Positions 3,404 to 44,162 of a DNA stretch of 64,000 nt are shown here, piece after piece. The stretch lies in the NCBI RefSeq assembly GCF_050920415.1, contig NZ_CP169309.1; one strand, given 5' to 3'. Under the pieces are notes generated by a model that had not been told where the DNA came from, did no database searches, and was given only the letters and a program-made list of their open reading frames with translations. Positions within the stretch are counted from its first letter, which is position 1; the number at the start of each line of letters is the position of its first letter. The DNA comes from Escherichia coli. Lineage in GTDB: Bacteria; Pseudomonadota; Gammaproteobacteria; Enterobacterales; Enterobacteriaceae. The translations under genes were made by a program, and so were the position numbers.

Positions 3404-3442
3404 TTGTTTTACCGCCTGATGGGCGAAGAGAAAGAACGCGTA

Positions 3443-3474
3443 AAAGGTCGGTTTAACCGGCCTTTTTATTTTGT
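3443..3474 (+). terminator. Candidate rho-independent terminator downstream of infA
   Basis: Hairpin aaaaggtcgg-ttta-accggcctt followed by tttttatttt. Confidence 0.5.
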
Positions 3475-3577
3475 ACGAAGAACGTTGGAAGTATAAGTAC
3501 ATAACTTGTCTCGATGTAGATATACTGCACAACTTGTTTACAGTATGAGCAAACGAGAATTGTCAGTAAAATTCTTC

Positions 3578-3649: not shown

Positions 3650-3737
3650 GGTGAGGTGTCCGAGTGGCTGAAGGAGCACGCCTGGAAAGTGTGTATACGG
3701 CAACGTATCGGGGGTTCGAATCCCCCCCTCACCGCCA
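3650..3737 (+). tRNA. serW: tRNA-Ser (anticodon GGA), 88 nt including CCA
   Basis: GGTGAGGTGTCCGAGTGGCTGAAGGAGCACGCCTGGAAAGTG...GGGGGTTCGAATCCCCCCCTCACCGCCA; acceptor stem ggtgagg/cctcacc, long variable arm, encoded CCA. Confidence 0.95.
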
Positions 3738-3750
3738 TATTTGAAGAAGA

Positions 3751-3777
3751 GCTCGTACGAAAGTACGGGCTTTTTTT
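3751..3777 (+). terminator. Rho-independent terminator after serW
   Basis: 8-bp stem gctcgtac/gtacgggc with GAAA tetraloop followed by T7. Confidence 0.7.
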
Positions 3778-3787
3778 CGCATTTTAT

Positions 3788-3867
3788 CTGCCTGTACGGC
3801 AGTGAACAAAATTACAAAGCATCAAAACCAGGGAATAGTTTTCTAAGCTGCCTGTACGGCAGTGAAC
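3788..3867. repeat. Two copies of a 20-bp direct repeat ctgcctgtacggcagtgaac (3788-3807 and 3848-3867), each holding a small hairpin
   Basis: Exact 20-bp identity read from the sequence, 60 bp centre to centre. Confidence 0.6.
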
Positions 3868-3926
3868 TCAAATACTACACGTCTAGCCCGTTGTTAATAA
3901 AGCAAAACCATCTCATTTTCCTGCTG

Positions 3927-3945
3927 CCCCCCCCCCCCCCCCCCC
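3927..3945. repeat. Homopolymeric C19 tract followed by T6
   Basis: 19 consecutive C at 3927-3945, then tttttt. Confidence 0.9.
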
Positions 3946-4030
3946 TTTTTTATCCTTACCTTTCAGCTGCACTACTTATCAACAACTTACCATCATCATC
4001 AAAAAAAGGGTCTGAACCTCCTCCACCCCA

Positions 4031-4068
4031 TAAATAAAAAGTCCGTAACCTCTTTCGAGATTACGGAC
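4031..4068 (-). terminator. Candidate rho-independent terminator of clpA
   Basis: Inverted repeat gtccgtaa...ttacggac, followed on the minus strand by tttttattta, just 3' of the clpA stop. Confidence 0.6.
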
Positions 4069-4093
4069 TTCACCAACCTACCTAACAATTAGA

Positions 4094-6370
4094 TTAATGC
4101 GCTGCTTCCGCCTTGTGCTTTTGTGCACTCTGGAATCCGTAAGTCAGCTCATTTTTCTCTTTATCCAGCGCAACCGTCACCTGACCGCCGTCCACCAGCG
4201 AACCAAACAACAGTTCGTTGGCGAGCGGTTTTTTCAGGTTGTCCTGGATGACACGCGCCATCGGACGTGCGCCCATCGCCCGGTCGTAACCTTTCTCGGC
4301 CAGCCAGTTACGCGCTTCCTGGCTCACTTCCAGAGAAACACCTTTCTGATCCAACTGAACCTGCAACTCGACGATGAACTTATCCACCACCTGATGGATC
4401 ACGTCGGTGGAGAGATGATCGAACCAGATAATGTTGTCGAGACGGTTACGGAATTCCGGTGTAAAGATCTTCTTGATCTCTTCCATCGCATCGGTGCTGT
4501 TATCCTGATGGATAAGACCAATCGATTTACGCTCAGTTTCCCGTACCCCGGCATTAGTGGTCATCACCAGCACCACGTTACGGAAGTCCGCTTTGCGTCC
4601 GTTGTTATCGGTCAGCGTACCGTTGTCCATCACCTGCAACAGAATATTGAACACGTCCGGGTGCGCTTTCTCGATTTCGTCCAGCAGCAGCACCGCATGA
4701 GGATGCTTGATGACCGCATCAGTCAGCAAACCGCCCTGATCAAAACCAACGTATCCCGGAGGCGCACCAATCAGACGGCTGACGGTATGGCGTTCCATAT
4801 ACTCGGACATATCAAAGCGTAACAGTTCAATGCCCAGAGCTTTGGAAAGCTGCACCGTCACCTCGGTTTTCCCGACCCCGGTAGGACCAGCAAACAGGAA
4901 CGAACCGACTGGTTTATGTTCGTGACCTAAACCTGCACGCGCCATCTTAATGGCTTCAGTCAGCGCCTCAATGGCTTTATCCTGACCGAAGACCAGCATT
5001 TTCAGGCGATCGCTGAGGTTTTTCAGGGTATCGCGGTCACTCTGAGAAACACTCTTCTCTGGAATGCGCGCAATACGGGCCACCACGGACTCAATATCCG
5101 CCACATTAACGGTTTTCTTGCGTTTGCTTACCGGCATCAGGCGTGCGCGAGCGCCCGCTTCGTCGATAACGTCAATAGCTTTATCCGGCAGATGACGATC
5201 GTTAATGTATTTCACCGCCAGCTCCACCGCAGCACGCACCGCTTTCGCGGTATAACGCACGTCGTGGTGCGCTTCATACTTCGGTTTCAGGCCATTGATG
5301 ATTTGAACAGTTTCTTCGATCGACGGTTCAGTAATATCAATTTTCTGGAAGCGACGCGCCAGAGCACGGTCTTTCTCGAAAATGTTGCTGAACTCCTGAT
5401 AGGTTGTCGAACCAATTACGCGAATTTTACCGCTGGAGAGCAACGGTTTGATCAGGTTAGCCGCATCAACCTGACCACCAGAGGCTGCACCCGCACCGAT
5501 AATGGTGTGGATCTCATCAATAAACAGGATGCTGTTAGTGTCCTGCTCCAGCTGCTTGAGCAACGCTTTAAAACGTTTTTCAAAGTCGCCGCGATATTTT
5601 GTGCCCGCTAACAGAGAACCGATATCGAGAGAGTAAATCGTACAGTCAGCCATCACTTCCGGCACATCGCCCTGAACAATTCGCCAGGCAAGACCTTCCG
5701 CAATCGCGGTTTTGCCGACACCGGATTCCCCCACCAGCAGCGGGTTGTTTTTACGGCGACGGCAGAGAACCTGAATAGCACGCTCCAGCTCCTTCTCACG
5801 ACCAATCAGTGGGTCGATTCCGCCCACACGCGCAAGCTGATTCAGGTTCGTCGTGAAATTCTCCATACGTTCCTCCCCACCAGCTTGTTCTTCGCTGTTT
5901 GGCTGGCTGCCAGGATCAGAAGACTGTGTCGGCTCGTCTTTACGCGTGCCATGAGAGATAAAGTTCACCACATCGAGACGGCTGACTTCATGTTTGCGCA
6001 ACAGATATGCCGCCTGCGACTCCTGTTCGCTAAAGATAGCGACCAGAACGTTTGCACCGGTAACCTCATTGCGACCGGAGGACTGGACATGGAAGACCGC
6101 ACGTTGCAGTACACGCTGAAAACTCAGCGTTGGCTGTGTGTCGCGCTCCTCTTCACTGGCAGGCAGAACGGGTGTGGTTTGTTCAATAAAGGCTTCCAGT
6201 TCCTGACGGAGCGCAACCAAATCCACAGAACACGCTTCCAGCGCCTCCCGGGCAGATGGGTTACTGAGCAGCGCCAGTAACAAGTGCTCGACGGTCATAA
6301 ACTCATGACGGTGCTCGCGCGCTCTGGCGAAAGCCATATTTAAACTGAGTTCCAGTTCTTGATTGAGCAT
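4094..6370 (-). CDS. clpA: ATP-dependent Clp protease ATP-binding subunit ClpA
   Basis: ORF matches ClpA ([31 protein letters not shown]..., two AAA+ modules GESGVGKT and GPTGVGKT); start trimmed to ATG at 6368-6370, preceded by a gggagg SD. Confidence 0.97.
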
Positions 6371-6721: not shown

Positions 6722-7043
6722 TGTCAGTTATCATCTTCGGTTACGGTTATCGGCAGAACGCCCTGCCGCTGACAAGAGCTTATTTGCCTGACCAATCTAC
6801 TCCACATGATAGATAACTATCATCTATCGTTGGCATCAGCGACATCTGTCACATTCCTGTCAATAGCGTTAACTGCTTCAAATTTTTGATTCATACCTGC
6901 CCCCTGGCCCCTGTCAAATGCTTGACGGCTCGCCCTAATTCTCTAAATTGTATTTCTAGAGTTGGCGAGGTTTTGAACAGCCCCCTCTCTGACCCCGGTT
7001 TATTCCATCTTACTTGTATAAGATTTGCGAAGGATGTCGAAGC

Positions 7044-44064: not shown

Positions 44065-44143
44065 GCCACTGCTTTTCTTTGATGTCCCCATTTTGTGGAG
44101 CCCATCAACCCCGCCATTTTGGTTCAAGGTTGGTGGGTTTTTT
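44065..44143 (+). ncRNA. rybB: RybB small RNA (sigma-E-dependent, Hfq-binding, represses OMP mRNAs)
   Basis: gccactgcttttctttgatgtccccattttgtggagcccatcaaccccgccattttggttcaaggttggtgggtttttt matches RybB, including the terminator hairpin and T run; lies between ybjL and rcdA as in K-12. Confidence 0.9.
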
Positions 44144-44162
44144 GTTATCTAAAATTTATCTA

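Follow-up and report, generated by a model that had tools for sequence, protein, structure and literature searches.

A cas-less type I-F CRISPR mini-array in the clpA–infA locus of Escherichia coli, with a leader C19 tract that is probably a slippage expansion

The paired repeats and the C19 homopolymer that lie downstream of serW in the stretch of E. coli DNA analysed here (64,000 nucleotides, referred to below as the window) very probably belong to a single feature, the cas-less type I-F CRISPR mini-array of the clpA–infA locus of E. coli, with the C tract being a slippage expansion in the leader of that array. The array has already been described in the literature and is no new element, and the C19 tract is part of its leader rather than an element of its own. 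The array is of minimal size, with two repeats and one spacer. It would be read on the minus strand, in the order leader (about 4037–3868), leader-proximal repeat (3867–3840), spacer (3839–3808) and terminal repeat (3807–3780). The features of the interval, in window coordinates, are as follows.

3650–3737, plus strand: serW, tRNA-Ser(GGA), as context (ARAGORN; Rfam tRNA, 53.8 bits; tRNA-Ser annotation in homologous loci).
3742–3779, plus strand: terminator-like hairpin and T run of serW, abutting the distal end of the array (terminator scan).
3780–3807, minus strand: terminal (leader-distal) type I-F repeat, GTTCACTGCCGTACAGGCAG-ATAAAATG (Rfam CRISPR-DR4, 29.7 bits).
3808–3839, minus strand: 32-nt spacer, ACTATTCCCTGGTTTTGATGCTTTGTAATTTT, targeting the final 18 nt of cas6f/csy4 and the next 14 nt.
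3840–3867, minus strand: leader-proximal type I-F repeat, GTTCACTGCCGTACAGGCAGCTTAGAAA, a perfect match to the consensus (Rfam CRISPR-DR4, 50.1 bits, E=1e-10).
3868–4037, minus strand: leader of a CRISPR4.1-type array, between the clpA terminator and the first repeat (full-length alignment with the clpA-side leader of E2980 and with K-12).
3888–3900, minus strand: putative proximal IHF-like site, TTATTAACAAC (from the inverted repeat 3890–3900 / 3976–3986, 91% complementary).
3927–3945, no strand assigned: C19 homopolymer (G19 on the crRNA strand), the expanded CCC of an ancestral CACCC-TTTTTT.
3943–3951, no strand assigned: proximal arm, CCCTTTTTT, of the leader inverted repeat (a 9-nt perfect inverted repeat with 4002–4010); probable counterpart of the I-F IR-proximal motif.
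3977–3989, no strand assigned: consensus IHF site TATCAACAACTTA (WATCAANNNNTTR), the putative distal one (regex match).
4001–4010, no strand assigned: distal arm, AAAAAAAGGG, of the leader inverted repeat (inverted-repeat and motif scan).
4038–4071, minus strand: terminator-like hairpin of clpA, as context (terminator scan).
4094–6370, minus strand: clpA, transcribed in the same direction as the array (ORF list; clpA annotation in homologous loci, including that of MFDS1022581).

The gap between serW and clpA is 356 nt long, and the ORF list contains no cas ORF within it. The region had been described as bracketed by the terminators of serW (plus strand) and clpA (minus strand), and terminator-like hairpins are indeed found at 3742–3779 and 4071–4038. 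A 98-aa ORF with a TTG start (3741–4037) was rejected as spurious; it spans the tRNA terminator, the two CRISPR repeats and the homopolymer. The sub-threshold Rfam hits nearby (sraA, MicC, Thr_leader and others), all of which score below their own gathering levels, were ignored. Among these, the sraA-like match on the minus strand at 3433–3521 (30.8 bits; gathering score 56) overlaps the terminator region of infA and is probably driven by the terminator hairpin. Elsewhere in the window, two ordinary E. coli features score above the gathering level: the RybB sRNA at 44068–44146 on the plus strand (104.8 bits) and naRNA4/CssrE at 31313–31393 on the minus strand (78.4 bits). In some E. coli an “RtT sRNA” is annotated directly upstream of the orphan array, in the usual place of serW (ETEC1738, locus L007, 136–270), which suggests a rearrangement or an insertion at serW.

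The 20-mer CTGCCTGTACGGCAGTGAAC is present in two exact copies (3788–3807 and 3848–3867), each of which contains the palindrome CTGCC-TGTAC-GGCAG, as had been reported for this region. A search for other copies found none in the 64-kb window, even with up to three mismatches allowed, and 0 copies would be expected by chance. This description stands, but the size of the unit does not: the true unit is 28 nt (3780–3807 and 3840–3867), lies on the minus strand and recurs with a period of 60 nt, the distance between the repeat starts being the sum of a repeat and a spacer (28 + 32). The match of 3867–3840 to the CRISPR-DR4 family covers all 28 positions, exceeds the gathering score of 35 bits and is one of only four hits at gathering level in the entire window; 3807–3780 scores below that threshold. 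The first 20 nt of the terminal repeat are intact, including the Cas6f hairpin (CUGCC/GGCAG), and only its last 8 nt are degenerate. Degeneration confined to the last 8 nt is typical of a terminal repeat, and the same terminal repeat is found in K-12 and other cas-less genomes. The Cas6f hairpin, with a 5-bp stem and a 5-nt loop, is predicted to form in the RNA of both repeats. The terminal repeat of K-12 carries a G-to-A change in the hairpin stem (GTTCACTGCCGTACAGACAG) and that of the window keeps a perfect stem, so the window array would be the better Cas6f substrate of the two.

The leader-proximal repeat is identical to the repeats of both arrays in E2980, a type I-F-positive E. coli, and the repeats align with cas-associated I-F arrays. 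A type I-F repeat, a spacer length of ~32 nt, a homologous 5′ leader and a PAM-flanked spacer are thus all found together at this locus. From these comparisons each 20-mer is identified as the conserved core of a type I-F CRISPR repeat, the two repeats surrounding one 32-nt spacer.

The original prediction had suggested other roles for the repeats beside serW: a degenerate attachment site, sites for protein binding (such as operators), or elements of a terminator. It is true that serW serves as an integration site in some E. coli, and that in several genomes the match to the locus starts only after the tRNA, or breaks there. However, nothing at the 3′ end of serW resembles the 20-mer, the two copies of the latter are the only hits in the window, the full repeats are just 32 nt apart, and there is neither an integrase nor a flanked island; in other words, the arrangement by which a tRNA-associated attachment site is recognised, with repeats of the tRNA 3′ end flanking an integrase element, is absent here. 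Generic protein-binding sites likewise give way to the type I-F CRISPR repeat consensus and to the homology with arrays that are flanked by cas genes. Nor is a role of the repeats in termination borne out, since serW and clpA already have separate terminators. The attachment-site and terminator readings were dropped on the strength of the CRISPR-DR4 match and the homology to cas-flanked arrays, and we regard them as next to impossible.

The spacer matches the E2980 locus at 32 of 32 positions (L003, 4808–4839, minus strand), where the chance expectation is 0. The identity between spacer and cas6f ends exactly at both borders of the spacer, and a CC dinucleotide lies immediately 5′ of the protospacer; the consensus PAM of type I-F is GG/CC (PMC4678832; PMC9602844). 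Judged by these borders and this PAM, the spacer is a genuinely acquired one. It was also considered as a stub of cas6f left behind by a deletion, and this was rejected because the identity stops at both borders, full repeats flank the segment and the CC PAM adjoins the protospacer. The same 32-mer lies within annotated cas6f in many I-F-positive genomes, and just a dozen or so of the 5,426 complete genomes have it in an array. Among the matches listed, the genomes that carry the spacer in an array have a single copy of the 32-mer, which means that spacer and target do not coexist in them. MFDS1022581, which is nearly clonal with the window, also has one copy of the spacer sequence and hence no cas6f target. 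In phage and plasmid collections no full-length match to the spacer was found, only short partial matches at chance level (E ~1 or higher).

According to the literature, the type I-F system of E. coli lies between clpA and infA, and the single cas-less cassette found there is CRISPR4.1-2, equivalent to the CRISPR3 of Touchon and Rocha (PMC2886076; the nomenclature is also used in PMC10910852). Cas-less CRISPR3 holds spacers only against Ypest-type cas genes, with Cas1, Cas3 and Csy2 as targets (Touchon and Rocha 2010, PMC2886076). In E2980 the order is infA, CRISPR array, serW, cas6f-csy3-csy2-csy1-cas3f-cas1f, CRISPR array, clpA, and the window aligns with the clpA-side array and leader of this genome from its first repeat through to clpA. 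No cas1f-cas2/3f-csy1-csy2-csy3-cas6f operon adjoins the window array, and the array is therefore an orphan at this locus. Every spacer that it contains (n=1) matches a cas gene of its own subtype, as is the case in cas-targeting orphan arrays. In cas-less genomes RefSeq/PGAP gives no annotation for the orphan I-F array with one spacer; the longer arrays of I-F-positive strains are annotated as CRISPR.

The interval occurs in about 5,057 of 5,426 complete E. coli genomes. The original prediction was to fall if the sequence proved common across E. coli, and common it is as far as the repeats are concerned; the C19 tract, on the other hand, is found in no other complete genome. The spacer content varies among related genomes. 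The array of 2017-02-2CC (L005) reads [cas6f spacer]-[csy3 spacer], those of Z0117EC0005 (L006) and ETEC1738 (L007) contain the csy3 spacer alone, and 2016C-3878 (L008) has one repeat and has lost all spacers. The csy3 spacer of the sister genomes, GCCAACCGAAAGAAAAACTCGATTTTTATACC, has 2–3 mismatches to csy3 of E2980 (L003, 5495–5526) and a CC PAM; K-12 has a spacer against cas1f, with 3 mismatches and a CC PAM. The cas6f and csy3 protospacers share a strand and are separated by 656 nt; of the two spacers, that against cas6f is nearer to the leader. Because the sister genomes carry the csy3 spacer either alone or distal to the cas6f spacer, the window lineage appears to have lost it through a deletion between repeats.

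The leader contains a set of motifs in which the C tract is embedded. The two leaders of E2980 (4.1 and 4.2), which are otherwise dissimilar, share A5-6G3 at −70..−62, an IHF site at −108..−96 and C3T7 at −129..−120. In the ancestral state, ACCCTTTTTT forms a perfect 10-bp inverted repeat with AAAAAAGGGT, 50 nt away, and the IHF consensus site lies between these two arms. The putative proximal and distal IHF sites themselves form an inverted pair. The window has the homopolymer in place of the proximal arm, and its upstream motifs have moved out by 14 bp, to −84, −122 and −143; the IHF consensus site is accordingly at −122..−110, compared with −108..−96 in the E2980 leaders. On the array (minus) strand of the leader, a consensus scan found no sigma-70 promoter, and no convincing −35/−10 pair could be seen by eye.

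The tract itself is as had been described, with C19 at 3927–3945 followed directly by T6 at 3946–3951, and it lies 59 nt upstream of the first repeat. It is also as exceptional as had been claimed: the second-longest homopolymer in the 64-kb window measures 8 nt, and under an i.i.d. model about 4e-7 runs of 19 or more C would be expected. The original prediction had asked for an alignment of tract lengths across E. coli and could not say whether K-12 has the run. K-12 does not; at this position K-12 and E2980 have ...CTGCAGCACCC-TTTTTT..., that is, CACCC-TTTTTT with no long tract. In the haplotype of the window, CTGCTG is followed by C6 in 2016C-3878, C7 in Z0117EC0005, C8 in 2017-02-2CC and C11 in both MFDS1022581 and N96; ETEC1738 has a G-to-C variant and also C8. 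No tract longer than C11 was found in the 5,426 complete genomes, C11 itself occurs in two of them, and a metagenome scan for this haplotype with C9 or more gave 0 hits. The proposed hypermutability by slippage is supported, although not proven, by this series of C6, C7, C8, C11 and C19 among close relatives.

Over 38.3 kb of shared sequence the window and MFDS1022581 differ by 3 substitutions and one indel, and that indel is the C tract; the tract has therefore either changed in length much faster than its flanks or been miscalled. MFDS1022581 also has two mobile-element insertions relative to the window. One is an island that lies between clpS and yljB and measures about 10.3 kb (L015, 6857–17179), where the window has an empty site; it carries genes for an integrase, a primase, a major capsid protein, a head-decoration protein and a terminase small subunit and looks like a phage satellite, and a 21-bp segment of the window (6807–6827) is duplicated at its two ends. 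The other is an IS2 that interrupts a pentapeptide-repeat protein gene (junction at about 25642–25646 of the window). In the window this gene is an intact 594-aa ORF (25242–27026, minus strand), and in N96 it is frameshifted.

The simplest account of the tract is neutral slippage following a substitution that created the run. By a substitution, the CACCC-TTTTTT of the proximal inverted-repeat arm would have acquired a run of six C, which replication slippage would then have lengthened within the lineage to C7, C8, C11 and C19. Where Cas1-Cas2/3 is lacking, the geometry of the leader would not be under selection, and such slippage could proceed neutrally. The tract is probably without a present-day function, and some uncertainty attaches to its exact length. 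Sequencing errors are frequent in long G/C homopolymers whatever the platform, and it is possible, though on balance unlikely, that the length of C19 is an artefact of sequencing or assembly; the true tract would then be about C11, as in the two closest relatives, and otherwise just a moderately long C run. Exactly C11 is found both in MFDS1022581, with its 3 substitutions in 38 kb, and in N96, which is more distant at 99.1% identity, and the genome and metagenome surveys yielded nothing longer than C11 and nothing of at least C9, respectively. An overcall of 8 nt would be large, however, and long-read platforms more often shorten long homopolymers than extend them; the graded lengths of C6, C7, C8 and C11 over independent assemblies moreover argue that the site truly expands.

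A more elaborate possibility is that the tract acts as a contingency (phase-variation) switch, controlling either how the anti-cas crRNA is transcribed or how competent the leader is for adaptation. Such a switch could operate through the spacing of motifs, through promoter geometry or through a G-quadruplex on the crRNA strand, a G19 run being sufficient for a three-tetrad intramolecular G-quadruplex. The tract does lie inside a functional leader of roughly 150 bp, in which conserved motifs have been displaced by 14 bp, and a long homopolymer that differs in length between near-identical genomes (C19 here, C11 in MFDS1022581) is one mark of a contingency locus. Against this, there are no cas genes at the locus and so no phenotype to switch; the ORF list and the consensus scan show no real ORF and no promoter-like site around the tract; and the long tracts are confined to one rare lineage, which fits drift rather than a maintained switch. 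Homopolymeric contingency switches are not known from E. coli. We consider the switch very unlikely. In its most novel form, a phase-variable CRISPR leader, the hypermutable tract would occupy the proximal inverted repeat by which Cas1-Cas2/3 is positioned, and a change in spacing or a G-quadruplex would reversibly tune or disable spacer acquisition or the transcription of the anti-cas crRNA; this we likewise consider very unlikely.

The spacer of the array was presumably gained through Cas1-Cas2/3 at a time when the I-F system was present. Acquisition was probably primed by the older csy3 spacer that is still found in sister genomes; the shared strand of the two protospacers, their distance of 656 nt and the leader-proximal position of the cas6f spacer fit this route. 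The cas operon would then have been lost, with the array surviving. At present the array is expected to be inert unless I-F proteins enter the cell. The parts for a 60-nt crRNA are nevertheless all intact, namely the 8-nt handle CUUAGAAA, the spacer and, from the next repeat, the 20-nt hairpin, and for this reason an incoming I-F system could be guided against the end of its own cas6f. With I-F proteins in the cell, Cas6f would cut the transcript, and the Csy complex together with Cas2/3 would attack the incoming cas6f end.

It is a finely balanced matter whether the spacer has been kept as a selected barrier to re-acquisition of I-F or is a mere scar of a lethal self-targeting event that selected for the loss of cas. 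The latter, a hypothesis that Touchon and Rocha attribute to Diez-Villasenor (PMC2886076), seems to us to have slightly less than an even chance of being the whole explanation. The spacers date from the cas-positive state, since acquisition requires Cas1-Cas2/3, and the positions of the cas6f and csy3 protospacers are such as priming would give; some lineages have lost all spacers (2016C-3878), and in the lineage of the window the leader is decaying. On the other side, Touchon and Rocha (PMC2886076) argue for a much stronger retention of cas-targeting spacers than of others and for the cas-less array as the widespread state, and every element needed for making the crRNA is still intact in the window. 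We lean slightly towards a scar with incidental potential as a barrier, over a maintained barrier, because the leader decays here and some lineages have lost every spacer.

The main value of the analysis is one of correct annotation: what appeared to be unexplained repeats next to a tRNA is an orphan I-F CRISPR array, of a kind that is not annotated by RefSeq in cas-less E. coli. It goes modestly beyond the 2010 survey (PMC2886076) in two respects. The cas-targeting spacers of this lineage are directed against cas6f and csy3, with canonical PAMs, and the orphan array has a leader in visible decay, with a conserved arm of its inverted repeat expanded by slippage. This decay fits a relaxed selection on adaptation signals after the loss of cas. 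The tract is also a practical warning, either as a fast-evolving typing marker or as a spot of assembly disagreement, since two near-identical genomes differ there and by no other indel.

Compared with known systems, the window array is closest to CRISPR4.1-2, the cas-less CRISPR3 or “anti-CRISPR” (Diez-Villasenor / Almendros; Touchon and Rocha 2010). It occupies the same locus, from clpA to infA/serW, and shares the 28-nt repeat, the terminal repeat, the leader and the lack of adjacent cas genes, and its single 32-nt spacer is likewise directed at a type I-F cas gene. It differs in that the spacer aims at the 3′ end of cas6f, whereas the targets in the 2010 survey are Cas1, Cas3 and Csy2, and in that the leader has a 19-nt C run that is present in no other complete genome. 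As with self-targeting spacers and orphan arrays in general, a perfect protospacer with its PAM exists in the gene pool of the species and appears to be missing from the carrier; here, however, the target is the cognate cas operon and not a prophage or a housekeeping gene.

The long G/C run, with a length that varies among very close relatives, recalls the contingency loci of Neisseria, Haemophilus, Campylobacter and Helicobacter. In contrast to those loci, no gene or mapped promoter depends on the window tract, which is restricted to one rare lineage.

For the leader, the best reference is the type I-F system of Pseudomonas aeruginosa, in which integration involves two IHF sites and two inverted repeats, with a spacing that is critical for Cas1-Cas2/3 (bioRxiv 10.1101/2023.05.26.542337). 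The simple repeat pattern used to extend the comparison to other genera recovered arrays in only 2 of 5 I-F plasmid loci; IHF-like sites and inverted repeats do occur in the leaders of I-F plasmids of Legionella and Vibrio, where the motif sequences and the spacing of E. coli are absent. Like the P. aeruginosa leader, which is folded over ~150 bp, the E. coli leader has an IHF site flanked by a 9–10-bp inverted repeat and a second IHF-like site near the repeat, with distances that are equal in two paralogous E. coli leaders. By analogy, we infer that the E. coli arms and IHF sites correspond to the motifs of the P. aeruginosa leader. The window departs from this plan in that its proximal arm is a 19-nt run and its upstream motifs lie 14 bp further out.
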